64,000 nucleotides of DNA from Spirochaetia bacterium (GCA_965226055.1 CBDDCA010000006.1:1-64000), one strand, 5' to 3'; counted from the stretch's first letter, positions 22,616 to 62,282 are shown. Notes: generated from the letters alone by a model not told the origin. Numbers and translations: made by a program.

Positions 22616-22644
22616 GAGTATAGTATACCATAATACTTATATTT

Positions 22645-22678: not shown

Positions 22679-22712
22679 GCGTACTTACTTTGATTATACT
22701 ATATGTGTGTGC

Positions 22713-23228: not shown

Positions 23229-24694
<1,466 letters not shown>

Positions 24695-35559: not shown

Positions 35560-36015
35560 TTACATTAAATTTTTATAATGCTGTTTTATTAGTTCTCTAT
35601 TTATCTCAGCTCCTACTTGTTTCTCATTGATGGTAATAGTCCATGGAGTCTCATGTTTATGTGTTATATCGGATAGCTCCCAATCAGTTAAATTACCATA
35701 TACTTCTAATACTTCTAGTATCAAATCATATTCTTTTTTATGTTCTTTTTCATTATAAGTAACATCAGTTTTTATAGGAGATTTTATAGGATTAAACATA
35801 TTTCTATGTTCTTTTTTAATTTTCTCATAAACAGTTTTACAGACAGGACCATAAGGAAAAGCATAAAAATCATCATCAATAAGCCATCTATCATAATTAG
35901 CAATATACCATCCGCATGAAAAGTATAATAATTTCTGTAATTTCATATTACGTATAGGGTCTTTTTTATCTATAAAGTGCTGTAGTATTATATTAGTTGC
36001 TACTAAAGTATCCAT
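35560..36015 (-). CDS. Panacea (DUF4065/SocA) antitoxin, orphan
   Basis: MKLQKLLYF, YGPV, LSDITH, PW; AAGGAGG RBS. Confidence 0.9.
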   Translation of the reverse strand: MDTLVATNIILQHFIDKKDPIRNMKLQKLLYFSCGWYIANYDRWLIDDDFYAFPYGPVCKTVYEKIKKEHRNMFNPIKSPIKTDVTYNEKEHKKEYDLILEVLEVYGNLTDWELSDITHKHETPWTITINEKQVGAEINRELIKQHYKNLM

Positions 36016-44729: not shown

Positions 44730-45890
44730 ATGAAAAAGTCTCATTCACATGTTAGTAATAACATACAAAGAAATATATTGCTTAATCCAGGTCCTGCCAC
44801 TACCAGTGATACGGTAAAGTATGCTCAAGTAGTACCAGACATTTGTCCTCGTGAAGAAGAATTTGGAGCATTAGTACTCTGGATACAAGAACAGCTATGT
44901 ACATTTGTAGGAACAAAAGAAAATACACAATGTGTTCTTGTTGGCGGGAGTGGTACTGCTGCAGTGGAAATGGTCATTAGCAGTGTTATCCCTCAAAATT
45001 CTGCACTCATAGTCATAAACAATGGTGCTTATGCAGAACGTATTATAAAAATAGCGAGCATTTATCATATAGAGGTAATAGACTTTCCTTCTCCTACTGA
45101 TAAAGAAGTAGATTATACTGCACTTGAAGAATGCATCGTACATAACAAAAAATTGTTAGCACAAAAAAATAAAACCTTAAGTCACATGGCTGCAATACAC
45201 CATGAAACAACAAGTGGCTTACTTAACAACATGAAAAAACTTGGAAGCATATGTAACACTCATGCAATATCTCTCATATCAGATGCAATGAGTAGCTTTG
45301 CTGCTATTCCTATAGATATGGAATCAGATAACATAGAGTATGTTATTGCTTCTTCAAACAAGAATTTACAAGGAATGGCAGGTATTGGCATAGCACTTTG
45401 TAATACTGACGCTTTAGAAAATACAAAAACGATAGAAAAAAGAAATCTGTATCTCAATCTCTATGATCAATATTCTTACTTCTTAAAAACACGACAATTT
45501 AGATTTACTCCTCCTGTACAAACACTCTACGCAATGAAGCAAGCCATACAAGAATGCATCACAGAAGGGGTAGAAAACAGATACACCCGCTACCTTAACT
45601 CATATCAAATACTAAGACAAGGCATGCAATCTCTTGGGTTTCGTGTTCTTGTACCAGAAGAAATTTCATCTGGATTGATCACAACATTCTTTGAGCCAGA
45701 AGATACAAAATATAATTTTGATACGATGCATGATTATCTTTATGAAAAAGGATTTACCATTTATCCCGGAAAAATAAGTCAAGCTCATACATTTCGTTTA
45801 GCAAATATTGGAGACATATACAAAGAGGACATACACAATTTTCTGCATTGTCTAAAACAGTATTTACAGACATACAATATAAAAGTGTAA
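44730..45890 (+). CDS. aepZ: 2-aminoethylphosphonate aminotransferase (AepZ/PhnW family)
   Basis: LLNPGP, GSGT, NGAY, HHETTSG, DAMSS, SSNKNLQG, RFTPP, IYPGK. Confidence 0.92.
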   Translation: MKKSHSHVSNNIQRNILLNPGPATTSDTVKYAQVVPDICPREEEFGALVLWIQEQLCTFVGTKENTQCVLVGGSGTAAVEMVISSVIPQNSALIVINNGAYAERIIKIASIYHIEVIDFPSPTDKEVDYTALEECIVHNKKLLAQKNKTLSHMAAIHHETTSGLLNNMKKLGSICNTHAISLISDAMSSFAAIPIDMESDNIEYVIASSNKNLQGMAGIGIALCNTDALENTKTIEKRNLYLNLYDQYSYFLKTRQFRFTPPVQTLYAMKQAIQECITEGVENRYTRYLNSYQILRQGMQSLGFRVLVPEEISSGLITTFFEPEDTKYNFDTMHDYLYEKGFTIYPGKISQAHTFRLANIGDIYKEDIHNFLHCLKQYLQTYNIKV

Positions 45891-45899
45891 GCTGGTAAT

Positions 45900-46643
45900 T
45901 TATTTATATGCCATTTTTTTCACATAATCACAAATTCGCTGATAATCTTCTATAAAGTCAATTTCACTCCAAAATGTACCAGCAATATCAATAACAGAAA
46001 TAGGATGATCTTTATGTTCTACCAACGCAGATTCCCACCAAGTAGCATGCTGTCTTTGTTCTAACATAGCAGTCAACTGTACATACAATGTATGCACAAA
46101 ACTCTTAGGAATAAGCGCAACATCTACACTTTCTGCCATAGATACATGAGGAATATCTTTTCCATAGGCGTCTAAAACATTTTCTTGATTATAGGTAACC
46201 TTTACATCGGCAACATTCTTTCTGCTAGAATCTACAAGCAGTATTGGGTTTTCTGTTTTTTGTATAGCATCAAATGCCATACAAAAAATGCTTGTGTCCA
46301 AAAAAGTGTCTGCGTTCATAATTATGGTAGCCTCTGTCTCTTGTAAAAGAATATCCTTTGCAAACCACAGGGACCCTATTGAATTGACTATATAGTAAAA
46401 CGGATTATATATACACTGTACAGTTTCGTACTGAGAAAGACTGTCTTCTACTTTCTTATGCTTATATCCAGTAACTACTGTAATATGCGATATTCCCTGC
46501 TGTAACAAAGAATCAACTGTATATGCAATAAGAGGAATAGCATCTCTTTCCGATGTATGTATCGGCAACAAACATTTATGTTCTTGAGAAATATGCTGTG
46601 CTATTCGGCTACCAATTCCAGCAGCAAGCAAAATTGCTTTCAT
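45900..46643 (-). CDS. LicC/PntC-like cytidylyltransferase
   Basis: LLAAGIGSR, KCLL, VVTGYK, NSIGSL, WSEIDFIED; phosphonate context. Confidence 0.82.
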   Translation of the reverse strand: MKAILLAAGIGSRIAQHISQEHKCLLPIHTSERDAIPLIAYTVDSLLQQGISHITVVTGYKHKKVEDSLSQYETVQCIYNPFYYIVNSIGSLWFAKDILLQETEATIIMNADTFLDTSIFCMAFDAIQKTENPILLVDSSRKNVADVKVTYNQENVLDAYGKDIPHVSMAESVDVALIPKSFVHTLYVQLTAMLEQRQHATWWESALVEHKDHPISVIDIAGTFWSEIDFIEDYQRICDYVKKMAYK

Positions 46644-46704
46644 AGTTATAGTATAGTGCTATTATCACAAAATTGTAATATATTATTTTTACTGTTGTTA
46701 TATC

Positions 46705-48078
46705 CTACGCTACCTGCTTTGCAATATCTACCAGTACCTCTGCACTCTTTTCCCCTGCTCTCCCTATATTGCATACAGCGTTGTCTCTCAATGCCTGTAT
46801 TGATGCTATGTACTGTTGCCGAGACGCTATCGTAGAATCAATAAGAGAAGGCAATTTCTGTATTTCGTCTGAGTGTATTACTGCCCCAAGCTGTTCAAGA
46901 ACATCTAGCTCCCAAGCGTTCCATGGAATATCATTTCCTTCCATACCTAACAATACAGGATGCGTGTTATGAGTAATGACAGGTTTTTCAAAAATAAAAG
47001 CAAAATCAAAAATGATACCGCTCCTATCAGAGATCAATACATCAGCATTCTGTAAAGAAGCAAAGTTATCGGCATTCATGTCCCATGTGATATTCGTATA
47101 CTCCTTAAATGTATGTTGCAAGTGTTCTATGAAATCACGTTCAACAAGCACACTCTGCGGATGAGGACGAATAATAATAGCATAATTACTCTCTATAAGC
47201 GACCGAAGCATCGTTTCTCCGCATATATTGAGCAGGCTTGATTGTCCCCATGTAGGAGCTACTAGTACAGTAGCTTGATGTTCCGTATCTTCTTTTCTTT
47301 GAGTATCATCTGTAATACTATTATTTTTACGATTCCATAGCTCATCCATGTATGTACATCCAACAAGATAACTTTGCTTTTTATGAGTATTGCGTAGCTC
47401 TTCAAGATGACGCAAAGATTTTTCCTGATGAGTACCACTCAATAGTAATGAATCATAAAAATCAAACGCAAACAATTTATACAAATGGAGATCAGTAGGA
47501 GCATGAATAATATGAGCATAATGCTTTACTTGTTTTGATCTACGAATTTGCAATACATCAAGATTAGGAGTAGTTAAGGCACATACATCTGCTTTCAATA
47601 AATTCAAATGAAAAAATGCCTTGTTCCCTTTTCCTATATACTTTGTATGTACCATTTCAGATTCAAATGTAAGCCCAGGATCTTCTTTATCAGAGCTAAG
47701 GTAGGTACATGAAATTCCTTGTGAATGAAACGCACGGAGTATGGGAGCAAAAGTATTCCAGTACTGTCCTCCTTCACTATAGAACACAATAGATTGAGTT
47801 GATGTCACACTTACATCAATATCCTCTTTTTTACGAAATATCCCTCGTATCATCATGAAAGATGTATACCATACACTGCGTATAACAAATATCAAAGTAG
47901 ATACTATGCCAACTACAACAGCAAGCAACATACTTCCTGTTCCAGGATCAAGGTATGCATACAAGGGCTGTGTATACACAAGCAAAAACATAAAAATAGC
48001 TATTACTCTATACTGTGTAAAAATTTTCTTCTTCATATACAATAGTATACTCCTTTTTATTATTTTACTTTTTTCCAA
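46705..48078 (-). CDS. CDP-glycerol:glycerophosphotransferase (TagB/F-like) with an N-terminal YLDPGTGS membrane module
   Basis: LVAPTWG, RPHPQ, LISDRSGIIFDF; true start may be 48037. Confidence 0.82.
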   Translation of the reverse strand: MEKSKIIKRSILLYMKKKIFTQYRVIAIFMFLLVYTQPLYAYLDPGTGSMLLAVVVGIVSTLIFVIRSVWYTSFMMIRGIFRKKEDIDVSVTSTQSIVFYSEGGQYWNTFAPILRAFHSQGISCTYLSSDKEDPGLTFESEMVHTKYIGKGNKAFFHLNLLKADVCALTTPNLDVLQIRRSKQVKHYAHIIHAPTDLHLYKLFAFDFYDSLLLSGTHQEKSLRHLEELRNTHKKQSYLVGCTYMDELWNRKNNSITDDTQRKEDTEHQATVLVAPTWGQSSLLNICGETMLRSLIESNYAIIIRPHPQSVLVERDFIEHLQHTFKEYTNITWDMNADNFASLQNADVLISDRSGIIFDFAFIFEKPVITHNTHPVLLGMEGNDIPWNAWELDVLEQLGAVIHSDEIQKLPSLIDSTIASRQQYIASIQALRDNAVCNIGRAGEKSAEVLVDIAKQVA

Positions 48079-51000
48079 TTCTTTTGTTCAAACATAGTAT
48101 CTGTTACTATATATTTATCTTTTATTGGAAAAGAATTTTTTGTCCGTAGCATTTCTTCCCAACCCAACAAGGGGGTTATGTAGCTCACAAGCTCTCTTCC
48201 TTCCTGTTGTCCTTGTGTAGGATCTGGTATTATTGTATCGGGACGACTAAAATCTTCAATACCATGAAAAGCAATGCTTGCTGTATCGGCATTACTCATA
48301 AAACGATTATCAACGCTAAGAGGATCAGTACTACCAATATCTTTTACCATAAGTAGTGCATGTAATAAAAAAAACACATCATCTCCTTGACGTCCAAATG
48401 AAATAGGAGCAACATTGTTGATATTCATAGGATCACTTTGTCCTGTTGTTGAATGATCAGACACAAGTATTATTTTCGTATTATCGTATATATTATTTTC
48501 TTTCAGCCAATGAAACCATGTACCAAGTGACATGAGTGTACACTTTAAAGTATCATAGATGCCATCATCTTTAGCATCTGGAGTTTCATAGTATAAAACC
48601 TTACAATCAGGGCCTAAGCTATACGGAGAATGCGTAATATGAGTATGTAAAAATGTAAATGTCCCATGTTGCTCTTGCTTTTTAACTTGCTGTTCGTCTC
48701 TTACATTTGATAGATATGAAAGTGAATCTACAAAAGACCAATCTCTTAATGTTGAGAAATACACATCACGATAGCTTTTTTGTAAAAGGCCATGCCATTT
48801 TTCATCATCATATATCATTCTTCTAAAAGTAATAGGAACAGAACGGAGTAAACTTGCTAATAGAAACAAGGAAGTTTTTTCTTTTGTTGTTTTTGCAACT
48901 AATGCAGTACTACGCGATATAACACTATCATAGAGTTGTTTTTGTTCAGGATGCCTTTCTAACCAAGGGCTTTGATAACTTTCAATTATTTCATTTTTTT
49001 CTATACATATTACCTTTTTTTTACGAACACCAGCACAACCTTCATTTTGCTCCTTTCCATAAAAAGAAAGACCAAAATGTCCCACCTGATACTTATAAGA
49101 TTGAAATGTATCTATCATAGTATCATGAGCAGCAGTAAACTTTTGTGCTACATTCTTCCCTTCTATATCTACTATATTCTCAGGAGTAAACTGCCATCCT
49201 CCCATCATTGAAGGCTTGCTTGCAGTGGTATTATTGCCAATACTAAGGGTATTAGGATACCATGTAAATCCACGATATATTTCCGCTAACTGTGGAACTT
49301 CTTCTAACACACGTTGTACTAATCCTCCATTTGCCATATCCAATAAAATGACCACTATGTTCCGTTTCTCTTTTGAAAAAGAGAGTAGCTGAGAAGGAAA
49401 TGTTTCCGCTACTGTTATACCATTATTCTCATCCTTTCCTTGCAACACTATAGATGTATTTTCTCTTCCCATGTAATATCTACTGTACCATCCACTAAAA
49501 TCTACAATTCTTACTAATACTAATCCCAAACACAGCGTTGCTACAATACTTATTATCCCTATCTTTTCCATCACTACACGATACAGCACCAGTATAAATA
49601 CAGTAAGAGCAATCCCTTCTGCCATATACATAAAAACAGTCAAAGTCAACCTCTCTGGAAAAAACAATATGAAGTGATCCATTTTTCCCATATCAAAAGG
49701 AACAAATACACTGTACAGTAACAACAAACCTAATACAAGTATACAGATAAATGCTACCTGTCGTTTTATTCTCTTTGGAACAAGCATATACAATAGTACA
49801 GGAGCTACTATCATCCCTAGCATAATCCATATTGTATTCTTTACTATATCTGTAAACAATATCCTCACATCATCAGGAGAGCTCCTATACAATTCTGCTG
49901 GAAGCTGTATGCATATAAGCAATGCTACTGTTATGCTTAGCACTAACAAGGTATACACTCCCCATTTTTGTTTTCCTTGATGTATTCTTTTTACTGAGAT
50001 ACTTTGCTGCTTCTTAGTAGTAAAAGCTACCAAAGATATAAAATACGGAAATAGTACCCCATTCATACTTACGAGTAATGCAAATGATACTAATTTTATA
50101 ATATATACACTTCTCGTTATATCTTCATCTGGTATATAAAAATAATAGAGTAGCAACAGCATACCAATACTCATGCTTATACAGAAAAGCATTCCTATTA
50201 TATTTTTCTTTCTCTTACTTTTAGTATTCTTACAGTATGACAATAGTAATATACAAGCACTCACTACCAATATTGTTATAGCTATTCCCAAGATTGTATT
50301 AGGTACTGCTAATCTTAAATGTCCTTCTGGTATCAATAAAAATGACAAACATATGTACCCTGCAAATATCCATGCAATGACAACAGTGTTTACTACTTTC
50401 TTATCATTTTCTATAAAAGATGTTATTTTCTGTTTTATAATGCGATAAGTACTCTCCTGCTTTCCACTATAATTTTGTTGTGCATTTTTTTGTAATCGAT
50501 GTGCTAACACAATATTCTTTAGCAGTGTAAATACATTGTTACAAGTCCAGTACAGCACTAATCCCGATGGCATAGCATATAACAACACAAAAAATATCAA
50601 TGCCATATTCCATGCTGACATTAAGGAGTTTGGATCTACTCTTCGCGTGTACACATTTGCTGCCATAATATTTATTGCAGTCATAATAAAAGGAAGCACA
50701 TTGATACGATAGCGACCAAACGGAAACAACGCATCTGCTTTTGACAGATCTTCAATGAATAAAAACGAAACTCCTTCCAGTGCAGTAAAATCCCTTAACA
50801 TATGATATGCCGCAAAGAAAAATGGTATTTGTATAAGCAAAGAGCCTATAGACCGTAAGCCCAGCACAGGATGATACTTATGCAGCCGATATAAACTTTG
50901 TATCATCATAAACCGCTCTTGTCCTTGAAAGCTCTGCTTAATTTCATCTAACTTTGCTTGCATGGACTGTCGCTGTAATAATTCCTTTTTTTGTAAGCGT

Positions 51001-51146
51001 TCTGCCAGCATATACACAGGCAACAATAGAAGTGAAATAAAGAAACTTAACAGAACAATGGCATATCCATAATTATGCGAAAATTGATACAAGAATAGAA
51101 AGATATATTCTAAAAAAGACTCCAGAATAGAAAAAAACGAAAGCAT
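48060..51146 (-). CDS. YidC/Oxa1::membrane::LtaS/sulfatase-like fusion, copy 4 (divergent C-terminus)
   Basis: IQIPFF and PSGLVLYW..NN (YidC); ILLDM, NTLS...T, HITHSPY, SDH. Confidence 0.85.
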   Translation of the reverse strand: MLSFFSILESFLEYIFLFLYQFSHNYGYAIVLLSFFISLLLLPVYMLAERLQKKELLQRQSMQAKLDEIKQSFQGQERFMMIQSLYRLHKYHPVLGLRSIGSLLIQIPFFFAAYHMLRDFTALEGVSFLFIEDLSKADALFPFGRYRINVLPFIMTAINIMAANVYTRRVDPNSLMSAWNMALIFFVLLYAMPSGLVLYWTCNNVFTLLKNIVLAHRLQKNAQQNYSGKQESTYRIIKQKITSFIENDKKVVNTVVIAWIFAGYICLSFLLIPEGHLRLAVPNTILGIAITILVVSACILLLSYCKNTKSKRKKNIIGMLFCISMSIGMLLLLYYFYIPDEDITRSVYIIKLVSFALLVSMNGVLFPYFISLVAFTTKKQQSISVKRIHQGKQKWGVYTLLVLSITVALLICIQLPAELYRSSPDDVRILFTDIVKNTIWIMLGMIVAPVLLYMLVPKRIKRQVAFICILVLGLLLLYSVFVPFDMGKMDHFILFFPERLTLTVFMYMAEGIALTVFILVLYRVVMEKIGIISIVATLCLGLVLVRIVDFSGWYSRYYMGRENTSIVLQGKDENNGITVAETFPSQLLSFSKEKRNIVVILLDMANGGLVQRVLEEVPQLAEIYRGFTWYPNTLSIGNNTTASKPSMMGGWQFTPENIVDIEGKNVAQKFTAAHDTMIDTFQSYKYQVGHFGLSFYGKEQNEGCAGVRKKKVICIEKNEIIESYQSPWLERHPEQKQLYDSVISRSTALVAKTTKEKTSLFLLASLLRSVPITFRRMIYDDEKWHGLLQKSYRDVYFSTLRDWSFVDSLSYLSNVRDEQQVKKQEQHGTFTFLHTHITHSPYSLGPDCKVLYYETPDAKDDGIYDTLKCTLMSLGTWFHWLKENNIYDNTKIILVSDHSTTGQSDPMNINNVAPISFGRQGDDVFFLLHALLMVKDIGSTDPLSVDNRFMSNADTASIAFHGIEDFSRPDTIIPDPTQGQQEGRELVSYITPLLGWEEMLRTKNSFPIKDKYIVTDTMFEQKNWKKVK

Positions 51147-51150
51147 AGTA

Positions 51151-54100
51151 TTATTGTACCTTGTTCCAGTTCTTTAGTTCAAATATAGTATCGCTAACAG
51201 TATATTTATTTTTTATCTTAAATTGTTTCTTCTCTTTTATTAAATCTACCCAATTATAAAATTCAGTATGATATATTGGCACTGTTCTATCAGGTACTAA
51301 TTGCTTTGCATAATCAATTTTGTCAAAGGCATGTGCATCACTGGGAGGAACATACCTCTCTATGCTATGGTACATCATTGCTGCCGTATCAACATTACTC
51401 ATCAACCTTGTATCTATACTAAACGCATTGTTTTGATTAAAATCTTTTACTAATAACAGAGCATGTACACGGGTAAACACATGTGGATAATCTATCCCTA
51501 ATAACTCAGAGCTTATGTTGTTACTATTCATATAATCACTATAAAAATTACCTCCATGATCAGATACTATAATGATTTTTGTATTATCATATACATTATG
51601 CTCCTGCAACCATGTAAACCACTGTGTGAGTGATTCTATGCTACATCGAAAGGAAAAATAGGCAGAGTTTCCAGTATAGTTATTCTTTACATCTTCATCA
51701 GGAAATTCCTTATTTTGTAACCTACAGTGTTTATCAAGAGCATACGGTTGATGAGTAACAGAATTGTGTATAAATGTAAATGTTCCTGAAATATCCTCCA
51801 TTGAATATGTTTCCCTATCATCTTCTAAACGAGAAGAAGTACTTTGTAAAGAATCAAGCACTGCCCATTCTTTTATTGCATGCCTATATCCAATTTGATT
51901 CTTAAATTCAGAGTCACTCAAATTCCAATTTCCAAGATCATATACCGCATATTTCATCATCACTGGCACTGAGCGTAGTACCCCTGTCAATATCAGCAAT
52001 ACAATATTTCTCTCTGAAAGAGAAATGTCTATTTCTTTCTGCTGTTCTCTATTATTCTGTTTCCAATAACTCACAAAAGAATCATCCCAATAATCAAGAC
52101 AGGCAATATCCTGCTTTTCCAGATCCTTACACTGAGCATACTGTCCCTTATAGTACAAGCTACCAGTCATTCGTATCAGATAATTATATCGCTTAAAGCG
52201 AGAAAACATAGTATCATAGGCTCCCACTACTTTTTCCGCAAGATTGTCCCCTTTAATATCAACAATATTTTCAGGAGTATAGTTCCAGCCTGCCATCATA
52301 GCTGGCACACTTGTACTTGTATAGGCAGAAACACTGAGCGTATTAGGATACCATGTAAATCCTTTTAAGCGTTCTTTTATATTAGGCCTCTCATCTAAGA
52401 CCCGTTGCATATCACCACCATTTGCCATATCAAGCAACACCACCACTATATTTTGCTTTGTAGAAGAAAAAGAAAATAAACGATCAGCAATACGAGGAAC
52501 AGAAACATCTTGTGCATCTCCACTCTCCACTCCTGATGAGGCATCTTGCTTGTATGCCTCCGATATTCGTGCTACCACAGCATCATTTTGCAACCACAGC
52601 CCAAAATCAACCAACATATATGTAAACACTCCATTGACTGCCACTAACACAGTAATTATTATTTTTCTATTGTTACTATTCTTTAAAAAAGAAAATATCC
52701 AAAAACAAAAACATATCAAAGCTATCCCCTCTAATACATATATACTAACACGAGGCGAGAGAGATTGCGGTGACATTAAAATAAAATGATCAAGCCCTCC
52801 TATATCAAAAGGAATAACTAATGCGTATAACAATACTACAGACGATAGCACAAATACAATACAACTCACGTAGTTCTTTACTCTATACGGACAGCATATC
52901 CATATAAGCATAGGAATAACTATACTTGCTATAATATACGGCAACACATATATCAGTACAGCAGTAAACGACACAGATACAGACACAGGATCACTTTTAT
53001 ATATCTCTGCAGGAAGCACTAAAAAAATAAGCAAAGCAACAGCACCACTGCTTGCTAGCAGGATATACCACCACTGTCTTAGCTCTGCTTTCCTTTTAAG
53101 AAAGACAGCAGAGGACTCTGTATATGTATGCGATAAACGATATAACACAGACACCACATAAGGAAACAACACGGCGTTAGGAAAAATAAGAATAGCAAAG
53201 GCACTTAGCTTAAACAGTATAGCATCCCTATCTATCATAAACACTGGAAGCTGAATATAATAATATATCATAGCAGATCCAATGATCATACATGCAACAC
53301 TCCCAAAAAAAATGCTATACTTTACAATAGAAATACTATACACACGAGGAGCATTCTTACTGTTATAGTGTTTAGTATCATGCTGAAACTTTTTCTGTAA
53401 CTTTTCTTTATGTATCTGCTTTCGATAAAAATACAATAAAAGAATACTTTCACTTATCACCATTGCAACGATAGCAATTCCTAACAAAGTATTTGGTACT
53501 TCCCCTCTCAATCTATTTACTAAACGGAGCATATACGCAAGCACTAAATATCCACCAAACAACCACAGAAAGAATACAACCTTTATCACCTTTCTATCGT
53601 TCTCTATAAACATAAGTAATTTCTTTTGTATAATCTGCCAAGCACTCTCTTCTTTGTTTTTATTCTTTTGTAAACGAAGCGATAATATAATATTCTTTAG
53701 CAGTGTAAACACATTATTACAAGTCCAATACAGCACTAATCCCGATGGCATAGCGTACAACAACACAAAAAATACCAATGCCATATTCCATGTTGACATT
53801 AAGGAGTTCGGATCTACTCTTCGCGTGTACACATTTGCTGCCATAATATTTATTGCAGTCATAACAAAAGGAAGCATATTGATACGATAGCGACCAAACG
53901 GAAACAACGCATCTGCTTTTGACAGATCTTCAATAAATAAAAACGAAACTCCTTCCAGTGCAGTAAAATTCCTTAGCATATGATATGCCGCAAAGAAAAA
54001 TGGTATTTGTATAAGCAACGACCCTATAGACCGTAAGCCCAGCACAGGATGATACTTATGTAGCCGATACAAACTTTGTATCATCATAAACCGCTCTTGT

Positions 54101-54324
54101 CCTTGAAAGCTCTGCTTAATTTCATCTAACTTTGCTTGCATGGACTGTCGCTGTAATAATTCCTTTTTTTGTAAGCGTTCTGCCAGCATATACACAGGCA
54201 ACAATAGGAGAGAAATAAAGACACTTAACAGAACAATAGCATATCCATAATTATGCGAAAATTGATACAAGAATAGAAAGATATATTCTAAAAAAGACTC
54301 CAAAGGAGAAAGAAATGATGCCAT
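51151..54324 (-). CDS. YidC/Oxa1::membrane::LtaS/sulfatase-like fusion, copy 3
   Basis: Same architecture; THQPY, SDHG. Confidence 0.85.
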   Translation of the reverse strand: MASFLSPLESFLEYIFLFLYQFSHNYGYAIVLLSVFISLLLLPVYMLAERLQKKELLQRQSMQAKLDEIKQSFQGQERFMMIQSLYRLHKYHPVLGLRSIGSLLIQIPFFFAAYHMLRNFTALEGVSFLFIEDLSKADALFPFGRYRINMLPFVMTAINIMAANVYTRRVDPNSLMSTWNMALVFFVLLYAMPSGLVLYWTCNNVFTLLKNIILSLRLQKNKNKEESAWQIIQKKLLMFIENDRKVIKVVFFLWLFGGYLVLAYMLRLVNRLRGEVPNTLLGIAIVAMVISESILLLYFYRKQIHKEKLQKKFQHDTKHYNSKNAPRVYSISIVKYSIFFGSVACMIIGSAMIYYYIQLPVFMIDRDAILFKLSAFAILIFPNAVLFPYVVSVLYRLSHTYTESSAVFLKRKAELRQWWYILLASSGAVALLIFLVLPAEIYKSDPVSVSVSFTAVLIYVLPYIIASIVIPMLIWICCPYRVKNYVSCIVFVLSSVVLLYALVIPFDIGGLDHFILMSPQSLSPRVSIYVLEGIALICFCFWIFSFLKNSNNRKIIITVLVAVNGVFTYMLVDFGLWLQNDAVVARISEAYKQDASSGVESGDAQDVSVPRIADRLFSFSSTKQNIVVVLLDMANGGDMQRVLDERPNIKERLKGFTWYPNTLSVSAYTSTSVPAMMAGWNYTPENIVDIKGDNLAEKVVGAYDTMFSRFKRYNYLIRMTGSLYYKGQYAQCKDLEKQDIACLDYWDDSFVSYWKQNNREQQKEIDISLSERNIVLLILTGVLRSVPVMMKYAVYDLGNWNLSDSEFKNQIGYRHAIKEWAVLDSLQSTSSRLEDDRETYSMEDISGTFTFIHNSVTHQPYALDKHCRLQNKEFPDEDVKNNYTGNSAYFSFRCSIESLTQWFTWLQEHNVYDNTKIIIVSDHGGNFYSDYMNSNNISSELLGIDYPHVFTRVHALLLVKDFNQNNAFSIDTRLMSNVDTAAMMYHSIERYVPPSDAHAFDKIDYAKQLVPDRTVPIYHTEFYNWVDLIKEKKQFKIKNKYTVSDTIFELKNWNKVQ

Positions 54325-54328
54325 AGTA

Positions 54329-57300
54329 TTATTTTATCCTTTTCCAGTTCTTTAGTTCAAATATAGTATCGCTAACAGTATATTTATTTTTTATCTTAAA
54401 TTGTTTCTTCTCTTTTACAAACCCCACCCAATTATAAAATTCAGTATGATATATTGGCACTGTTCTATCAGGTACTAACTGCTTTGCATAATCAATTTTG
54501 TCAAAGGCATGTGCATCACTGGGAGGAACATATCCCTCTATACTATGGTACATCATTGCTGCCGTATCAACATTACTCATCAATCTTGTATCTATACTAA
54601 ACGCATTGTTTTGATTAAAATCTTTTACTAATAACAGAGCATGTGCACGAGGAAACATATATGAAAAATCTGTCCCTAACAACTCAGAGCTTATGTTGTT
54701 ACTATTCATATAATCTCTATAACCATTACCTCCATGATCAGATACTATAATGATTTTTGTATTATCATACATAGCATGCTCCTGCAACCATGCGAACCAT
54801 TGTGTGAGTGATTCTATGCTACATCGAAAGGAAAAATACGCAGAGTTTCCAGCATAGTTATTTTCTATATTTTCATCAGGAAATTCCTTATTTTGTAACA
54901 CACAGTGTTTATCAAGAGCATAGGGACGATGCGTAATATTATTGTGTATAAATGTAAATGTTCCTGCACTGTCCTCCATTGAGTATGTTTCTCTATCATC
55001 TTCTAAACGAGAAGAAGTACTTCGTAAAGAATCAAGTACTGCCCATGATTTTAATGCATACCTATATCCTTCTTGATTCTTAAATTCAGAGGTATTTATA
55101 TTCCAATTTCCATGATCATATACCGCATATTTCATCATCACGGGCACTGAGCGTAGTACCCCTGTCAATATCAGCAATACAATATTTCTCTCCGAAAAAG
55201 ATACATCTGTCTCTGCCTGTTGTTCTCTATTATTCTGTTTCCAATAACTCACAAAAGAATCATCCCAATAATCAAGACAGGCAATATCCTGCTTTTCCAG
55301 ATCCTTACACTGAGCATTATCTCCTCCGAGGTATGATACACCAGACATTCGCATCAAATAATTATATTGCTTAAAGCGAGAAAACATAGTATCGTATGCT
55401 CCCACTACTTTTTCCGCAAGATTTTCCCCTTTTAATATTACCATATTTTCAGGAGTATAGTTCCACCCTGCTATCATAGCTGATATACTTGCACCCGTAT
55501 AGGTAGAAACACTGAGCGTATTAGGATACCAAGTAAATCCTTTTAAGCGTTCTTTTATATTAGGCCTCTCATCTAAGACCCGTTGCATATCACCACCACT
55601 TGCCATATCAAGCAACACCACCACTATATTTTGCTTTGTAGAAGAAAAAGAAAATAAACGATCGGCAATACGAGGAACAGAAACATCTTGTGTATCTCCA
55701 TTCTCCATTCCCGATGTAGCATCTTGCTTTTGTGCATCTGATACTTGTGCTACCACAGCATCATTTTGCAACCACAGCCCAAAATCAACCAACATATATG
55801 TAAACACTCCATTGACTGCCACTAACACAGTAATTATTATTTTTCTATTGTTACTATTCTTTAAAAAAGAAAATACAAAAAAACAAAAGCATATCAGAGC
55901 TATCCCCTCTAATACATATATACTAGCACGAGGCGAAAGAGATTGCGGTGACATTAAAATAAAATGATCAAGCCCTCCTATATCAAACGGAACAACTAAT
56001 GCGTATAACAATACTACAGACGATAGCACAAACACAATACAACTCACGTAGCTCTTTACTCTATACGGACAGCATATCCATATAAGCATAGGAATAACTA
56101 TACTTGCTATAATATACGGCAACACATATATCAGCACAGCAGTAAACGATACAGATACTGATATAGGATCACTTTTATATATCTCTGCAGGAAGCACTAA
56201 AAAAATAAGCAAAGCAACAGCACCACTGCTTGCTAGCATGATATACCACCACTGTCTTAGCTCTGCTTTCCTTTTAATAAGCATAGTAGGAGTCTTTGCA
56301 TGTATCCCTGTATACTGTAAACGATATAACACATAAGGAAACAGCACTGCGTTAGGAAAAATCGTAATAGCAAAGGCACTTAGCTTCAACAATACAGTGT
56401 CAACATTTATCATGAACACTGGAAGCTGAATATAATAATACATCATAGCAGATCCAATGATCATACATGCAACACTCCCAAAAAAGAGGCTATACTTTAC
56501 AATAGAAGTACTATACACACGAGGAGCATTCTTACTGTTATAATGTTTAGTATCATGCTGAAACTTTTTCTGTAACTTTTCTTTATGTATCTGCTTCCGA
56601 TAAAAATACAATAGAAGAATACTTTCACTTATCACCATCGCAACGATAGCAATTCCTAACAAAGTATTTGGTACTTCCCCTCTCAATCTATTTACTAAAC
56701 GGAACACATACGCAAGTACTAAATATCCACCAAACAACCACAGAAAGAATACAACCTTTATCACCTTTCTATCGTTCTCTATAAATATAAGTAATTTCTT
56801 TTGTATAATCTGCCAAGCACTCTCTTCTTTGTCTTTATTCTTTTGTAAACGAAGCGATAATACAATATTTTTTACGAAGGCAAATATATTATTACAAGTC
56901 CAATACAGCACTAATCCCGATGGCATAGCATATAACAACACAAAAAATATCAATGCCATATTCCATGCTGATACTAAGGATTTTGGATCTACTCTTCGTG
57001 TGTACACATTTGCTGCCATGATATTTATTGCAGTCATAATAAAAGGAAGCATATTGATACGATAGCGACCAAACGGAAACAACGCATCTGCTTTTGAGAG
57101 ATCTTCAATGAATAAAAACGAAACTCCTTCCAGTGCAGTAAAATTCCTTAACATATGATATGCCGCAAAGAAAAATGGTATTTGTATAAGCAACGACCCT
57201 ATAGACCGTAAGCCCAGCACTGGATGATACTTATGTAGCCGATACAAACTTTGTATCATCATAAACCGCTCTTGTCCTTGAAAGCTCCCTTTAATTTCAT

Positions 57301-57499
57301 CTAACTTTGCTTGCATGGACTGTCGCTGTAATAATTCCTTTTTTTGTAAGCGTTCTGCCAGCATATACACAGGCAACAATAGGAGTGAAATAAAGAAACT
57401 TAACAGAACAATAGCATATCCATAATTATGTGAAAGCTGATACAAAAATATAAAGATATATTCTAAAAAAGACTCCAAAGGAGAAAAAAATGATGCCAT
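54329..57499 (-). CDS. YidC/Oxa1::membrane::LtaS/sulfatase-like fusion, copy 2
   Basis: Same architecture; THRPY, SDHG. Confidence 0.85.
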   Translation of the reverse strand: MASFFSPLESFLEYIFIFLYQLSHNYGYAIVLLSFFISLLLLPVYMLAERLQKKELLQRQSMQAKLDEIKGSFQGQERFMMIQSLYRLHKYHPVLGLRSIGSLLIQIPFFFAAYHMLRNFTALEGVSFLFIEDLSKADALFPFGRYRINMLPFIMTAINIMAANVYTRRVDPKSLVSAWNMALIFFVLLYAMPSGLVLYWTCNNIFAFVKNIVLSLRLQKNKDKEESAWQIIQKKLLIFIENDRKVIKVVFFLWLFGGYLVLAYVFRLVNRLRGEVPNTLLGIAIVAMVISESILLLYFYRKQIHKEKLQKKFQHDTKHYNSKNAPRVYSTSIVKYSLFFGSVACMIIGSAMMYYYIQLPVFMINVDTVLLKLSAFAITIFPNAVLFPYVLYRLQYTGIHAKTPTMLIKRKAELRQWWYIMLASSGAVALLIFLVLPAEIYKSDPISVSVSFTAVLIYVLPYIIASIVIPMLIWICCPYRVKSYVSCIVFVLSSVVLLYALVVPFDIGGLDHFILMSPQSLSPRASIYVLEGIALICFCFFVFSFLKNSNNRKIIITVLVAVNGVFTYMLVDFGLWLQNDAVVAQVSDAQKQDATSGMENGDTQDVSVPRIADRLFSFSSTKQNIVVVLLDMASGGDMQRVLDERPNIKERLKGFTWYPNTLSVSTYTGASISAMIAGWNYTPENMVILKGENLAEKVVGAYDTMFSRFKQYNYLMRMSGVSYLGGDNAQCKDLEKQDIACLDYWDDSFVSYWKQNNREQQAETDVSFSERNIVLLILTGVLRSVPVMMKYAVYDHGNWNINTSEFKNQEGYRYALKSWAVLDSLRSTSSRLEDDRETYSMEDSAGTFTFIHNNITHRPYALDKHCVLQNKEFPDENIENNYAGNSAYFSFRCSIESLTQWFAWLQEHAMYDNTKIIIVSDHGGNGYRDYMNSNNISSELLGTDFSYMFPRAHALLLVKDFNQNNAFSIDTRLMSNVDTAAMMYHSIEGYVPPSDAHAFDKIDYAKQLVPDRTVPIYHTEFYNWVGFVKEKKQFKIKNKYTVSDTIFELKNWKRIK

Positions 57500-57503
57500 A
57501 GCA

Positions 57504-60500
57504 TTATTGTACCTTATTCCAGTTCTTTAGTTCAAATATAGTATCGCTAACAGTATATTTATTTTTTATCTTAAATTGTTTCTTCTCTTTTACAAAATCT
57601 ACCCAATTATAAAATTCAGTATGATATATTGGCACTGTTCTATCAGGTACTAATTGCTTTGCATAATCAACTTTGTCAAAGGCATGTGCATCACTGGGAG
57701 GAACATATCCCTCTATGCTATAGTACATCATTGCTGCTGTATCAACATTACTCATCAACCTTGTATCTATACTAAACGCATTGTTTTGATTAAAATCTTT
57801 TACTAATAACAGAGCATGTGCACGGGTAAACATATATGGATAATCTATCCCTAATAACTCAGAGCTTATGTTGTTACTATTCATATAATCTCTATAACCA
57901 TTACCTCCATGATCAGATACTATAATGATTTTTGTATTATCATACATAGCATGCTCCTGCAACCATGCAAACCATTGTGTGAGTGATTCTATGCTACATC
58001 GAAAGGAAAAATACGCAGAGTTTCCAGCATAGTTATTTTCTATATTTTCATCAGGAAATTCCTTATTTTGTAACCTACAGTGTTTATCAAGAGCATAGGG
58101 ACGATGCGTAATATTATTGTGTATAAATGTAAATGTTCCTGCAATATCCTCTGTTGAATATGTTTCCCTACCATCTTCTAAATGAGAAGAAGTACTTCGT
58201 AAAGAATCAAGTACTGCCCATTCTTTTAATGCCCACCTATATCCATCTTGATTCTTAAATTCAGAGGTATTCATATTCCAATTTCCACGATCATATATCA
58301 CATTTTTCATCATCACTGGCACTGAGCGTAGTACCCCCGCCATTATCAACAACGAAATAGTTCTCTCTGAAAAAGATATATCTGTCTCTCTCTGCTGTTC
58401 TCTATTATTTTGTTTCCAATAACTCATAAAAGAATCATCCCAATAATCAAGACAGACAATATCCTGCTTTTCCAGATCTTTACATTGAGCATTATCTCCT
58501 CCATAGTATAATACACCAGTCATTCGTATCAGATAATTATATCGCTTAAAGAGAGAAAACATAGTATCGTATGCTCCCACTACTTTTTCCGCAAGATTTT
58601 CCCCTTTAACATCAATAATATTTTCAGGAGCATAGTTCCAGCCTGCCATCATAGCTAGTTTACTTGCACTCGTATAGGTAGAAACACTGAGCGTATTAGG
58701 ATACCAAGTAAATCCTTTTAAGTGTTCTTTTATACTAGGTCTCTCATCTAATATCCGTTGCATATCACCACCATTTGCCATATCAAGCAACACCACCACT
58801 ATATTTTGCTTTGTAGAAGAGAAAGAAAATAAACGATCAGCAATACGAGGAACAGAAACATCTTGTGTATCTCCATTCTCCATTCCCGATGTAGCATCTT
58901 GCTTTTGTGCATCTGATACTTGTGCTACCACAGCATCATTTTGCAACCACAGCCCAAAATCAACCAACATATATATAAACACTCCATTGACTGCCACTAA
59001 CACAGTAATTATTATTTTTCTATTGTTACTATGTTTCAAAAAAGAAAATATCCAAAAACAAAAACATATCAGAGCTATCCCTTCTAATACATATATACTA
59101 GCACGAGGCGAAAGAGATCTCGGTGACATTAAAATAAAATGATCAAGCCCCCCTATATCAAACGGAACAACTAATGCGTATAACAATACTACAGACGATA
59201 GCACAAACACAATACAACTCACGTAGCTCTTTACTCTATACGGACAGCATATCCATATAAGCATAGGAATAACTATACTTGCTATAATATACGGCAACAC
59301 ATATATCAGCACAGCAGTAAACGATACAGATACTGAGGTAGGATCACTTTTATATATCTCTGCAGGAAGCACTAAAAAAATAAGCAAAGCAACAGCACTA
59401 CTGCTTGCTAGCAGGATATACCACCACTGTCTTACTGCAACTTTCTCTTTAAGAAAAACACCAGACGCCTTTGCCTTTCTATACTGTAAACGATATAACA
59501 CATACACCACATAAGGAAACAGTACTGCGTTAGGAAAAATAAGAATAGCAAAAGATCGTAGCTTAAACCATACAGCATCAATATCTATCATGGACACTGG
59601 AAGTTGAATATAATAATATATCATAACAGATCCAATGATCATACATGCAACACTCCCAAAAAAAATGCTATACTTTACAATAGAAGTACTGTACACATGA
59701 GGAACATTCTTACTGTTATAGTGTTTAGTATCATGCTGAAACTTTTTCTGTAACTTTTCCTTATATATCTGCTTTCGATAAAAATACAATAGAAGAATAC
59801 CTTCACTTATCACCATTGCAACGATAGCAATTCCTAACAAAGTATTTGGCACTTCCCCTCTCAATCTATTTACTAAACGGAGCACATACGCAAGCACTAA
59901 ATATCCACCGAACAACCACAGAAAGAATACAACCTTTATCACCTTTCTATCGTTCTCTATAAACATAAGTAATTTCTTTTGTATAATCTGCCAAGCACTC
60001 TCTTCTTCTTTGTCTTTATTCTTTTGTAAACGAAGCGATAACACAATATTTTTTACGAAGGCAAATATATTATTACAAGTCCAATACAGCACTAATCCTG
60101 ATGGCATAGCGTACAACAACACAAAAAATATCAATGCTATATTCCATGTTGACATTAAGGAGTTTGGATCTACTCTTCGCGTATACACATTTGCTGCCAT
60201 AATATTTATTGCAGTCATAACAAAAGGAAGCACATTGATACGATAGCGACCAAATGGCAGCAACGCATCTGCTTTTGACAGATCTTCAATAAATAAAAAC
60301 GAAACTCCCTCCAGTGCAGTAAAATCCCTCAACATATGATATGCCGCAAAGAAAAATGGTATTTGTATAAGCAACGACCCTATAGAACGCAACCCCATCA
60401 CCGGATGATACTTATGCAGCCGATACAAACTTTGTATCATCATAAACCGCTCTTGTCCTTGAAAGCTCCCTTTAATTTCATCAAGCTTCTTTTTCATAGC

Positions 60501-60689
60501 CTGTTGCTTAAAAAGCTCCTGTTTCTGCAACTTTTCTGCTATCATATACACAGGCAAAAGTATACTATTTACAATGATACTTAACAAAATGATAGAAACT
60601 CCATAGTTATTTGAAATACTATACGAAAAAGTAAAAAGATACTGCAAGAATATTTCAAAAGGAGAAAAAATAGCTGCCATACTACCCAT
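57504..60689 (-). CDS. YidC/Oxa1::membrane::LtaS/sulfatase-like fusion, copy 1 (divergent N-terminus)
   Basis: Same architecture; start may be the ATG at 60680. Confidence 0.85.
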   Translation of the reverse strand: MGSMAAIFSPFEIFLQYLFTFSYSISNNYGVSIILLSIIVNSILLPVYMIAEKLQKQELFKQQAMKKKLDEIKGSFQGQERFMMIQSLYRLHKYHPVMGLRSIGSLLIQIPFFFAAYHMLRDFTALEGVSFLFIEDLSKADALLPFGRYRINVLPFVMTAINIMAANVYTRRVDPNSLMSTWNIALIFFVLLYAMPSGLVLYWTCNNIFAFVKNIVLSLRLQKNKDKEEESAWQIIQKKLLMFIENDRKVIKVVFFLWLFGGYLVLAYVLRLVNRLRGEVPNTLLGIAIVAMVISEGILLLYFYRKQIYKEKLQKKFQHDTKHYNSKNVPHVYSTSIVKYSIFFGSVACMIIGSVMIYYYIQLPVSMIDIDAVWFKLRSFAILIFPNAVLFPYVVYVLYRLQYRKAKASGVFLKEKVAVRQWWYILLASSSAVALLIFLVLPAEIYKSDPTSVSVSFTAVLIYVLPYIIASIVIPMLIWICCPYRVKSYVSCIVFVLSSVVLLYALVVPFDIGGLDHFILMSPRSLSPRASIYVLEGIALICFCFWIFSFLKHSNNRKIIITVLVAVNGVFIYMLVDFGLWLQNDAVVAQVSDAQKQDATSGMENGDTQDVSVPRIADRLFSFSSTKQNIVVVLLDMANGGDMQRILDERPSIKEHLKGFTWYPNTLSVSTYTSASKLAMMAGWNYAPENIIDVKGENLAEKVVGAYDTMFSLFKRYNYLIRMTGVLYYGGDNAQCKDLEKQDIVCLDYWDDSFMSYWKQNNREQQRETDISFSERTISLLIMAGVLRSVPVMMKNVIYDRGNWNMNTSEFKNQDGYRWALKEWAVLDSLRSTSSHLEDGRETYSTEDIAGTFTFIHNNITHRPYALDKHCRLQNKEFPDENIENNYAGNSAYFSFRCSIESLTQWFAWLQEHAMYDNTKIIIVSDHGGNGYRDYMNSNNISSELLGIDYPYMFTRAHALLLVKDFNQNNAFSIDTRLMSNVDTAAMMYYSIEGYVPPSDAHAFDKVDYAKQLVPDRTVPIYHTEFYNWVDFVKEKKQFKIKNKYTVSDTIFELKNWNKVQ

Positions 60690-60756
60690 TATATACCATG
60701 CATTGTATTCTATGCATATTCACTAGAAACAGACAAACAAGAACATGAAATAAATA

Positions 60757-62130
60757 CTACGAATATGAAGCCCGCATTATACGATCGTACAAAGCACTAT
60801 GACAACTATACTGAGGAATACATACAAATAATGCATCAAGCTGCAACCTATCACTAGTAGCAAAATATTCATACAGCCTCTGGGCTAACTCTTGCCAAGA
60901 AGAAAATAAACGTACCATACTGAGAGACGGTATTATACGCGTATCTACAATAGCATTATACAACACTTGATACATATCCTGAGAAATAGGACCTAACACA
61001 AGGCCAATAGTATGATACTGATGTACAAGATCCTTTTGTAAAAACGGAATAATACTATCGTATACTATTTTTTCTACACCTTGTTTCCTGTCTTTTTTTA
61101 TAGAGAATGTATTTGAACATGCACTATTATCATCATTATCAAACACAATAGTATCAAGAGGAATTACTTTTGCATGGGGAGCATAATGACGATACTTTGT
61201 CCCTGGAACCGATGCTATAATAGGAGCAGTATGAATACGAGAAACAGAACTGTCTTCATACATGGTATTTCTTTCTGATAGAGTACTTGTATCTATAGTG
61301 CGTACTTCTTTTGTTTTTTGCTGATGATGTTGCACCATATCTATTACTTGCAACCCTGTCTTTTCATGGATAGTATGTGCGTTAATACTTCCTGCACGAA
61401 CAATACACACACTATTACGGTATATATCTCCATCACTCTGATAGGCATCACTATGATTACCCCTTTCTTTATGCTGAGCATTATGACGCAAGGATATTCC
61501 AATAGAGTCAACAGTACAATCAACAATGGTAGACTCCAATCCAACATCACACTGACCACCGTCCACTATAGCAGAAACTCGACCAGACATCGCTTCCCAT
61601 GCCATAAGAGCATTCGTAGGACTAGGAAACCCTGAGACATTAGCACTCGGAGCAGCTAAAGGCTTTCCAAATGCAGCAATAATATCCTTAAATACAGAAT
61701 GCGCAGGAATACGTAAGGCAACCGTCTGCCCTCCTGCTCTTGCTATCGTACTTACTGCTTGACTAGCAAATGTAATAACACTTATAGGACCAGGAGCAAA
61801 CGCTCTTAAAATTGTCAGTGCCTTATTATAAGTACATGTATACCAATCAATCATCTTTTGCTTATCTTGTACAGATTCCAAATCTTCACTTCCTTGTGTA
61901 TAGTTCCAGCACATATACTGCTGTGCCATCTCTACATCAGAACAATGTACAATCAAAGGATTATCAACAGGACGATTTTTCAATACAAAAATATTTCTAC
62001 ACGCTATATCAGACTCAGCATTCCCTGCAAGCCCATACACAGTCTCAGTAGGAACAACAACAGGTTGATTTTGTTGCAAATAGCGTATTACCCTGCTATA
62101 CTCCTTTGTTTCAATAAGATGTGTTCTCAT
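60757..62130 (-). CDS. sua5: L-threonylcarbamoyladenylate synthase (Sua5 type)
   Basis: PTETVYGL, KNRPVDNPLIVH, AAPSAN, GLESTIVD, PGTKYRHYAP. Confidence 0.93.
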   Translation of the reverse strand: MRTHLIETKEYSRVIRYLQQNQPVVVPTETVYGLAGNAESDIACRNIFVLKNRPVDNPLIVHCSDVEMAQQYMCWNYTQGSEDLESVQDKQKMIDWYTCTYNKALTILRAFAPGPISVITFASQAVSTIARAGGQTVALRIPAHSVFKDIIAAFGKPLAAPSANVSGFPSPTNALMAWEAMSGRVSAIVDGGQCDVGLESTIVDCTVDSIGISLRHNAQHKERGNHSDAYQSDGDIYRNSVCIVRAGSINAHTIHEKTGLQVIDMVQHHQQKTKEVRTIDTSTLSERNTMYEDSSVSRIHTAPIIASVPGTKYRHYAPHAKVIPLDTIVFDNDDNSACSNTFSIKKDRKQGVEKIVYDSIIPFLQKDLVHQYHTIGLVLGPISQDMYQVLYNAIVDTRIIPSLSMVRLFSSWQELAQRLYEYFATSDRLQLDALFVCIPQYSCHSALYDRIMRASYS

Positions 62131-62282
62131 ATATGTATAATAGCACTAACATATACCTTACACCAACCTAATAGTACATATTATGGTATAGGATATTGTT
62201 GCTATAATGTACATTCTTTCTTTCTTGCATCCATCCCGTACAATTATGGTTTTTTTGCTATACTTATTATGGAGGACAGTAT

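Follow-up and report, generated by a model that had tools for sequence, protein, structure and literature searches.

The window analysed here is a 64,000-nucleotide stretch of DNA from a Spirochaetia bacterium (GCA_965226055.1, CBDDCA010000006.1:1-64000); all coordinates below are counted from its first letter. Between positions 48060 and 60689 it carries four head-to-tail genes on the minus strand—a1 to a4, or copies 1 to 4—separated by spacers of 4 nucleotides (nt). Each encodes a YidC-like module fused to a further membrane region and to an ectodomain with a predicted alkaline-phosphatase fold, and each reading frame is intact, with no internal stops. The protein of copy 2 is 88% identical to that of copy 1, copy 3 86% and copy 4 49%. 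The four-gene array is a recombination mosaic, in which a 5′ head of type A or B, a shared YidC core and a 3′ tail of type X or Y occur in different combinations. The genes and the parts of them referred to below are as follows, with b2, b4 and b5 denoting genes of a sister genome.

57504..60689, minus strand: a1, 1061 amino acids (aa); A-type head, shared YidC core and X-type tail, ectodomain type X1
60473..60689, minus strand: A-type head of a1 (gene nt 1-217, aa 1-72), the sole part of the array unique to copy 1
60015..60689, minus strand: YidC-like domain of a1 (aa 1-225)
58881..59996, minus strand: further polytopic membrane region of a1 (aa ~232-603), predicted to have about nine helices
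57507..58847, minus strand: ectodomain of a1, predicted alkaline-phosphatase fold (aa ~615-1061), with invariant D636, T673, D926 and H927
54329..57499, minus strand: a2, 1056 aa; B-type head, shared core and X-type tail, ectodomain type X2, ortholog b2
51151..54324, minus strand: a3, 1057 aa; B-type head, shared core and X-type tail, ectodomain type X3, ortholog b4
48060..51146, minus strand: a4, 1028 aa; B-type head, shared X-lineage core and Y-type tail, ortholog b5
50506..51146, minus strand: stretch that a4 has in common with a1-a3 (gene nt 1 to ~640), forming the right-hand end of the repeat

Results

Mosaic pattern along the four genes

Over nt 1-210 of the aligned genes, a1 stands apart, with DNA identities of 0.68, 0.67 and 0.64 to a2, a3 and a4, which match one another at 0.93-0.96. 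Across nt 211-640 every pair of the four copies is 0.92-0.96 identical. From nt 641 to the end it is a4 that differs, at 0.54-0.55 from a1-a3, which remain 0.92-0.93 identical among themselves, in a patchy fashion (0.76-1.00 per 100-nt window). A divergent first 217 nt is thus limited to a1 and a divergent last ~2450 nt to a4, whose Y tail shares 54-55% of its nucleotides and about 36-39% of its amino acids with the X tails. Site patterns follow the same course: up to nt ~207 the sites private to a1 prevail, and from nt ~606 onward those private to a4.

An earlier note, made from the sequence alone, had described a unique first ~70 aa in copy 1, a unique C-terminal ~800 aa in copy 4 and two middle copies that join a copy-4-type N-terminus to a copy-1-type C-terminus. 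The first corresponds to the A head (aa 1-72, 64-68% DNA identity to the B heads), the second to the 54-55% identity that sets in at nt ~640, and the third is borne out by the segment identities and by the breakpoint test below. The motifs that it quoted are also present: copies 1 and 2 read KGSFQ and NNIFAFVKNI where copies 3 and 4 read KQSFQ and NNVFTLLKNI, with the underlying DNA differences at nt 219-221 and 622-639. Its description of the central YidC DNA as near-identical in all four copies was slightly generous: pairs are 92-96% alike, but 4-8% of bases differ. Informative sites within this core are interleaved, uniting a1 with a2 at nt 219-221 and 622-639, a1 with a3 at 399, 469, 541, 576 and 579, and a1 with a4 at 273, 364 and 457. 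The core is therefore a checkerboard (patterns A, B and C interleaved), and each middle copy holds several short tracts.

Breakpoints and incongruent histories

Breakpoints in the middle copies were sought with a max-chi-square test restricted to sites at which the first and last genes differ, with 2000 permutations and hence a floor of p = 0.0005. Copy 2 is copy-4-like at 77:16 sites to the left of nt 591-606 and copy-1-like at 972:41 to the right; copy 3 is copy-4-like at 86:18 to the left of nt 639-652 and copy-1-like at 950:48 to the right (both p = 0.0005, the floor). These alignment intervals lie at about 56903-56918 of the window in a2 and about 53682-53695 in a3. The best breakpoints of the two middle copies thus differ, as had been proposed, but each copy carries several short tracts, not one clean crossover.

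Homologous loci were searched for in 41 genomes, the window's own (G000) included. A genome of the same genus assembled as one contig (G001, the sister genome) has the same locus, with the same flanking genes and five fusion genes, b1-b5; an A-type head occurs only on the first and a Y-type tail only on the last. The suggestion that copy number may vary was therefore correct, with four genes here and five in G001. One fusion gene was found in a genome of the same family (G002) and two in a genome from another family of the same order (G008). Across the two arrays, max-chi-square breakpoints are significant in all five middle copies (p = 0.0005 each), and our own implementation of a test of the pairwise homoplasy index (PHI) type gives p = 0.001 both for the nine copies (nt 1-700) and for the seven X copies.

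When a4 is compared with the X-type genes, synonymous divergence (dS) amounts to 0.14-0.28 over the core (aa 73-216) but to 1.7-1.8 over the tail, a contrast for which selection on the protein cannot account; between the head of a1 and the B-type heads it is 1.0-1.5. The tandem pair of G008 served as a control and contains no homogenised stretch, with identities of 71-80% in YidC and 41-79% in the tails. In the tail tree Y lies ~1.6-2.0 substitutions per site from X, whereas the YidC tree places it within the X copies. The histories of the N- and C-terminal parts conflict strongly, so that the congruent trees that would have spoken against the earlier note's reading of the locus were not obtained.

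Direction of change

P0009, a protein from another assembly that is 62% identical to a1, is sister to the X tails at 100/100 support; a search of genome contigs with it returned only the already known sister locus. Its head is 77% identical in amino acids to that of a1, 67% to that of b1 and 49-52% to the B heads. Its core is 76-80% identical to those of all nine genes and groups with all nine at 99/99, and its tail is 61% and 62% identical to the X tails of a1 and b1 and 35-36% to the Y tails. On sequence evidence, this outgroup marks head A with tail X as the ancestral combination and head B with tail X as a derived chimera. The core of all copies is of X-lineage origin, which makes the Y gene, too, a mosaic of B head, X core and Y tail.

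The A-type stretch ends at nt ~217 in a1 and at nt ~157 in b1. Since the a1 version matches P0009, it is in the sister lineage that a conversion tract has eroded the A head. Every one of the seven inter-copy junctions in the two genomes has almost the same sequence of X 3′ end, 4 nt and B head.

Age of the array and homogenisation by domain

The seven X-type genes carry 30 biallelic sites split by species (a1, a2 and a3 versus b1-b4), mostly at nt 312-1758, together with 40 sites that unite a3 with b4 and 21 that unite a2 with b2, mostly at nt 1825-2989. In a tree of the membrane region (nt 660-1780, X copies) the genes group by species at 100/100, and post hoc approximately unbiased (AU) tests reject the pairings of a3 with b4 (p = 2e-10) and of a2 with b2 (p = 9e-6). 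The tree of the ectodomain (nt 1800-3330) instead pairs a2 with b2 (100/99), a3 with b4 (100/100) and b1 with b3 (91/91), and there the AU test, again post hoc, rejects the species grouping of a1, a2 and a3 (p = 4e-9). The Y tails of a4 and b5 are 95% identical in DNA.

Because ectodomains form ortholog pairs across the two species, at least three X copies and the Y copy predate the species split. The pairing of ectodomains across species, set against the grouping of the membrane half by species, points to conversion that homogenises the 5′ half and selection that keeps the ectodomain types distinct. Paralogs thus group by genome in one part of the gene and orthologs group in the other, the pattern of concerted evolution. 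Nor is conversion confined to the YidC module, as the earlier note had supposed: the whole membrane half of the X copies (nt ~660-1780) takes part. Sites common to all b copies at nt ~499-525 suggest, short of proof, that conversion between X and Y cores continued after speciation.

Within this genome, the X tails differ by a dS of 0.11-0.13, with a ratio of nonsynonymous to synonymous change (omega) of about 0.5; the corresponding values for positional orthologs are 0.15-0.22 and about 0.25. In sliding windows over aa 661-960 the proportion of nonsynonymous differences (pN) is about 0.06-0.12 between paralogs and 0.01-0.05 between orthologs, and the paralog differences there are amino-acid changes conserved between species. 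The residues just past an invariant Thr illustrate this: TSASKLA in a1, TGASISA in a2 and b2, and TSTSVPA in a3 and b4. The extra gene of G001, b3, has an X1-type ectodomain like that of b1 (dS 0.14), so the change in copy number in that genome is not recent either.

The word accordion, with its sense of fast and recent expansion, does not suit these data. X-type copies are 7-8% apart in DNA, the tails included, where a gene accordion has near-identical units, and the sister species has the same ectodomain types in corresponding positions. Our verdict is that the array is old and selectively maintained, with concerted evolution partitioned by domain, and not a rapidly breathing accordion.

A loop between membrane helices (aa 394-429 of a1, about 59403-59510 of the window, and the same loop in a2 and a3) is hypervariable both among paralogs and between orthologs, with a pN of 0.19 against a proportion of synonymous differences (pS) of 0.13 within this genome; this could reflect diversifying selection or relaxed constraint.

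Predicted architecture of the fusion proteins

All four proteins match Pfam PF02096 (60KD_IMP) over aa ~26-215 at 86.1-90.3 bits (cut-off 35), and a1 and a4 match TIGR03592 at 91.5 and 94.1 bits (cut-off 84.3). All four also match PF00884 (Sulfatase) over aa ~600-930 at 28.5-46.4 bits (cut-off 25). An AlphaFold2 model of a1, built on 59 family members, reached a predicted local distance difference test score (pLDDT) of 88.4 and a predicted template-modelling score (pTM) of 0.75. It consists of a YidC-like module (aa 1-225), about nine further long helices (aa 232-603) and a globular domain (aa 615-1061). Foldseek superposed the N-terminus of the predicted structure on Escherichia coli YidC (6al2_B) with a root-mean-square deviation of 4.0 Å over 211 columns, at 27% identity. 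It placed the globular domain in the alkaline phosphatase superfamily, with hits to PbgA (6xlp, 1.8e-7), EptA (5fgn, 1.1e-6) and LtaS (2w5r, 3.3e-6); true sulfatases fell within E 1e-7 to 1e-5, equal scores that do not separate transferases from sulfatases. A sequence search of a4 against PDB chains matched YidC entries only (7 sequences), with the tail left without a match. Predicted topology would place the ectodomain outside the cytoplasm.

All 59 family members carry D636, T673, D926 and H927, and 58 of them carry H862; all five residues occur in a1-a4. By analogy with LtaS and EptA, the Asp and His residues would be metal ligands and the Thr the nucleophile, where true sulfatases have a formylglycine derived from Cys or Ser. 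The position of the groove arginine of YidC, R366 in E. coli, is occupied across the 59 members by Asn (27), Thr (16), Ser (13), Gly (2) or Gln (1), never by Arg or Lys. It is Asn in a1 and Ser in a2-a4; alignment to 3wvf pairs the Arg of its motif fivRgimypl with the Ser of a4. The window's own genome also encodes a separate housekeeping YidC of 585 aa, of the long diderm type, which keeps the Arg (LLIRLSTYPI). Judged from its sequence, each gene probably encodes a membrane enzyme made up of an arginine-less YidC-like module, about nine helices and an LtaS/EptA-like phosphotransferase domain.

Distribution of the family

The homolog search returned 563 of 7993 scored candidates at E ≤ 1e-10. 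Members of the family mostly bear the plain annotation YidC. A class-wide search matched 30 of 201 genomes at E ≤ 1e-40; with three candidates scored per genome, the copy numbers are lower bounds. Clustering of fusion genes is common within the class, and two or three lie within a few kb of one another in several of its genomes (e.g. G068, G041, G071, G161 and G188).

A fifth, distant fusion paralog, about 30% identical, lies on another contig of the window's own genome (contig 4, locus L032, 1629-5893). It encodes 984 aa, in which Pfam at E ≤ 1e-5 finds the YidC domain only. It is preceded by its own TagF-like gene, with an LtrA-family gene upstream and flagellar rod genes downstream.

Genomic neighbourhood

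The genes around the array that bear on its setting are these.

60757..62130, minus strand: Sua5/TsaC-family gene, which flanks the array upstream as unique sequence and is also conserved in the sister genome
46705..48078, minus strand: TagF-like glycerophosphotransferase-family gene, overlapping the end of a4 by 19 nt
45900..46643, minus strand: MobA-like/NTP_transferase nucleotidyltransferase gene, the last gene of the same-strand run
44730..45890, plus strand: 2-aminoethylphosphonate aminotransferase (PhnW/AepZ; TIGR03301, 392 bits, cut-off 360.8)
38399-39703, plus strand: cytidylyltransferase–phosphoenolpyruvate (PEP) mutase fusion, 2-aminoethylphosphonate (AEP) synthesis
37265-38395, plus strand: thiamine pyrophosphate (TPP) enzyme, phosphonopyruvate-decarboxylase-like, AEP synthesis

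A TagF-like family gene adjoins the fusion gene or genes in all five loci examined. In the overlap at 48060-48078 the TagF-like reading frame is listed with a TTG start; the 19 shared nucleotides suggest either translational coupling with a4 or a true start further on. A scan of 45000-63000 was uninformative on operon structure: it gave 78 promoter-like sites where 86.6 were expected, and 5 terminator-like sites where 7.3 were expected.

The AEP synthesis genes beside the array make up a full set. The best explanation of this setting is that the array sits in a cluster for AEP synthesis and cell-surface decoration, and its products probably decorate the cell surface, to judge by their predicted domains. 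Rice et al. 2019 (PMC6697681) describe such cytidylyltransferase-PEP mutase fusions as making cytidine monophosphate (CMP)-activated aminoethylphosphonate for cell-surface decoration.

Between the phosphonate genes, on the minus strand at 39789-44504, lies a gene for a 1571-aa protein with four fn3 and two DUF285 stretches; it has a G+C content of 42-43.5%, against 31-37% around it, and a strongly negative AT skew. Further away, two AAA_15/AAA_21 ATPase genes and a SocA/Panacea antitoxin-domain gene (21260-24694 and 35560-36015) may belong to defence or toxin-antitoxin systems, and two adjacent tandem radical-SAM/UPF0004 (MiaB-like) genes, of 502 and 519 aa, occupy 31458-34522.

Public contigs

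Ten rows of public sequencing runs contain part of the stretch, all as contigs and none from RNA; contigs of four of these runs were compared with the window. No piece among them spans the array and no joints were found; contigs end at repeat edges, for example at 50543. Within the a4 tail, contigs of three runs, from three studies, match a4 from 50082 upward and diverge below, at 50081-50082, into the same unrelated 30-base sequence, which is absent from the window, its own genome and the sister genome. These contigs may come from a variant whose last gene has another tail, or from a different organism.

Discussion

A proposed history for the array

The best explanation, to which we assign a probability of about 60%, is a tandem array of four working paralogs whose patchwork arose by homologous recombination in steps. 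The locus would have begun as a pair, an A-head/X-tail gene with a B-head/Y-tail gene behind it. The Y gene then had its YidC core overwritten by an X-lineage core, as the grouping of all nine cores with P0009 shows. Before the two sister species split, unequal crossovers within the shared core would have produced B-head/X-tail hybrids and a longer array; we hold this step, too, about 60% likely. Near-identical junctions are to be expected if an A-X gene recombined by unequal crossover with the B-Y gene behind it, giving A-X, B-X, B-Y and then further units. Gene conversion has subsequently kept the 5′ half uniform in each genome, a half that takes in the YidC core of every copy and, in the X copies, the entire membrane region. 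It has likewise trimmed the A head from its 3′ side; the head ends at nt ~217 here and at nt ~157 in the sister species. The X1, X2, X3 and Y ectodomains, which do stay distinct, are presumably kept so by selection, on the ground that they would differ in acceptor or donor specificity. Changes in copy number are only occasional, with four genes here and five in the sister species.

The earlier note's proposal that unequal crossover and gene conversion expanded the array agrees with the incongruent trees, the near-identical junctions and the ancestral standing of A+X, although the B gene is itself a mosaic with an X-lineage core. Its ancestral two-gene pair is not established by outgroups: the G008 pair is an independent duplication and G002 has a single gene.

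Several observations weigh against this history or loosen its details. In the head tree (72 columns) the B heads fall inside a clade of A and P0009 (96/98), which weakens B as the native head of a distant Y lineage. A hybrid made by crossover would look the same as an X gene that acquired its B head afterwards by conversion. Restricted to the four copies of the window, the PHI-type test is not significant, with p = 0.99 over the whole gene and p = 0.999 over nt 1-700. We read this as a negative result and do not count it against the mosaic, because among four sequences most of the signal falls on singleton sites, which that test disregards; the four copies have 92 parsimony-informative sites, interleaved, so that their signal comes from singleton sites and the breakpoint test. 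The core tree (nt 222-640) is an unresolved star, for which the AU test rejects neither a clade of a4 and b5 (p = 0.057) nor one of the four window copies (p = 0.354). Groups for the AU tests were chosen after the site-pattern counts, which makes their p-values post hoc, though extreme. The array is known from two genomes, both apparently metagenome-derived assemblies.

Alternative explanations

The strongest rival, which we consider possible but clearly less probable, is that duplication came first and conversion later: an A-X gene was triplicated in tandem and B heads were then pasted from the Y gene, with no need of crossover hybrids. The left anchor of such conversions would have been the homologous X 3′ end upstream, and copy 1 would have escaped because its Sua5 flank has no homolog. 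Edge copies of tandem arrays typically do escape homogenisation. Conversion is demonstrably active at the locus: in the sister species it has shifted the A/B boundary from nt ~217 to nt ~157. The core is made up of short tracts in a checkerboard, and right-hand breakpoints differ even between ectodomain orthologs (nt 591-606 in a2, 639-643 in b2). Against this rival, the near-identity of the seven junctions fits duplication of units at least as well. There is also a cost in events, since at least two duplications and at least one conversion per middle copy are needed in both species, whereas one unequal crossover yields the observed order directly.

That an all-X array had the tail of its last copy swapped at the domain boundary for a foreign or distantly paralogous Y tail, by recombination that was one-sided and anchored in homology, with its YidC module kept, seems to us distinctly unlikely. 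Such a replacement would suit the membership of the Y-gene core in the X/P0009 lineage (99/99), the sharp boundary at the end of the YidC domain in both species and a weak grouping of the Y tail with the G008 genes, apart from X, in one tree (82/87). However, that grouping dissolves once more outgroups are added, the G+C content of the a4 region is 0.33-0.34, like its surroundings, and the event would predate the species split anyway, given the 95% identity of the a4 and b5 tails. Tail replacement also leaves unexplained the difference between B and A heads (dS 1.0-1.5) and the B heads on all middle copies.

A history without recombination, in which stronger purifying selection makes old paralogs look alike in the YidC module, finds some encouragement in that domain's being the most conserved part of the family (outgroup identity 49-80% in the core, 31-62% in the tail), but it is very improbable: synonymous divergence is 6-12 times lower in the core than in the tail, the head of a1 reaches its high dS within the same domain, the G008 tandem pair is only 71-80% identical in YidC DNA, and the breakpoint tests, built on parent-differing sites alone, are immune to rate differences. 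It is just as unlikely that the assembler mis-joined or duplicated the middle copies, even though short-read contigs of public runs break at repeat edges and none spans the array, since the copies differ at 6-8% of bases overall, each with its own intact reading frame, the one-contig sister genome shows the same layout with copy-by-copy ectodomain orthologs, and contigs from two other runs (records 5 and 14) bridge two X-tail/B-head junctions.

Comparison with known systems

Recombination between the copies, as we read the array, invites comparison with the textbook cases of concerted evolution among bacterial paralogs: tufA/tufB, rRNA operons, babA/babB of Helicobacter and the tpr genes of Treponema. 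Like them, the array has a part of the gene in which paralogs within a genome are closer than orthologs between species, trees that are discordant along the gene, short mosaic tracts, edge copies that escape homogenisation and an occasional change in copy number. Unlike them, it is homogenised by domain: conversion acts on the membrane half, and the catalytic ectodomain retains three types that predate the species. Its converted module also joins two subfamilies, X and Y, between whose tails synonymous sites are saturated. Concerted evolution is a known process; what is new here is an example from a gene family that had gone unstudied, with conversion and selection acting on sharply separate parts. 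With gene accordions the array shares head-to-tail units of ~3.2 kb with one junction sequence and a copy number that differs between relatives, but its X tails are only 92-93% identical (dS 0.11-0.13) and the identities of the copies have been kept across a species split.

As proteins, the fusions resemble LtaS, EptA (MCR-1) and PbgA (YejM) in their Sulfatase match, their fold hits and their invariant Asp, Thr and Asp-His pair, whose roles we assign by analogy, but their membrane part—a YidC-like module and about nine helices—is far larger than the five-helix anchor of those enzymes. They resemble YidC/Oxa1 insertases in matching PF02096 and TIGR03592 above cut-off and in a predicted five-helix core fold, but they differ in the absence of the groove arginine throughout the family (59/59) and in the fusion of the domain to an enzyme, while a separate YidC in the genome keeps its Arg. 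Our literature searches turned up no paper that describes YidC fused to a sulfatase or to an LtaS-like enzyme.

YidC itself is reported to work as a lipid scramblase as well (PMC11997395), which makes a lipid-handling role for the YidC-like module conceivable by analogy. One may speculate further, although we rate the idea as improbable, that the module is no insertase but a lipid-facing ‘constant region’, for example a scramblase or flippase for the lipid-linked phospho- or phosphono-head group made by the TagF-like enzyme, and bound to remain matched to that one partner; conversion would then hold it and the membrane domain uniform, with the ectodomains as ‘variable regions’ of differing acceptor specificity. 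If this were true, copy-to-copy recombination would be a built-in way to reshuffle or resize the set of surface decorations in this spirochaete lineage.

Conclusions

Genes of this family should not be annotated as insertases, and short-read assemblies will break at the locus. The array offers a clean, well-controlled bacterial case in which conversion and selection act on different domains of the same tandem genes. The fusion family to which it belongs comprises widespread, unstudied enzymes, here amplified beside genes for aminoethylphosphonate synthesis, and its three or four ectodomain types are natural candidates for placing different phosphate or phosphonate groups on the cell surface.

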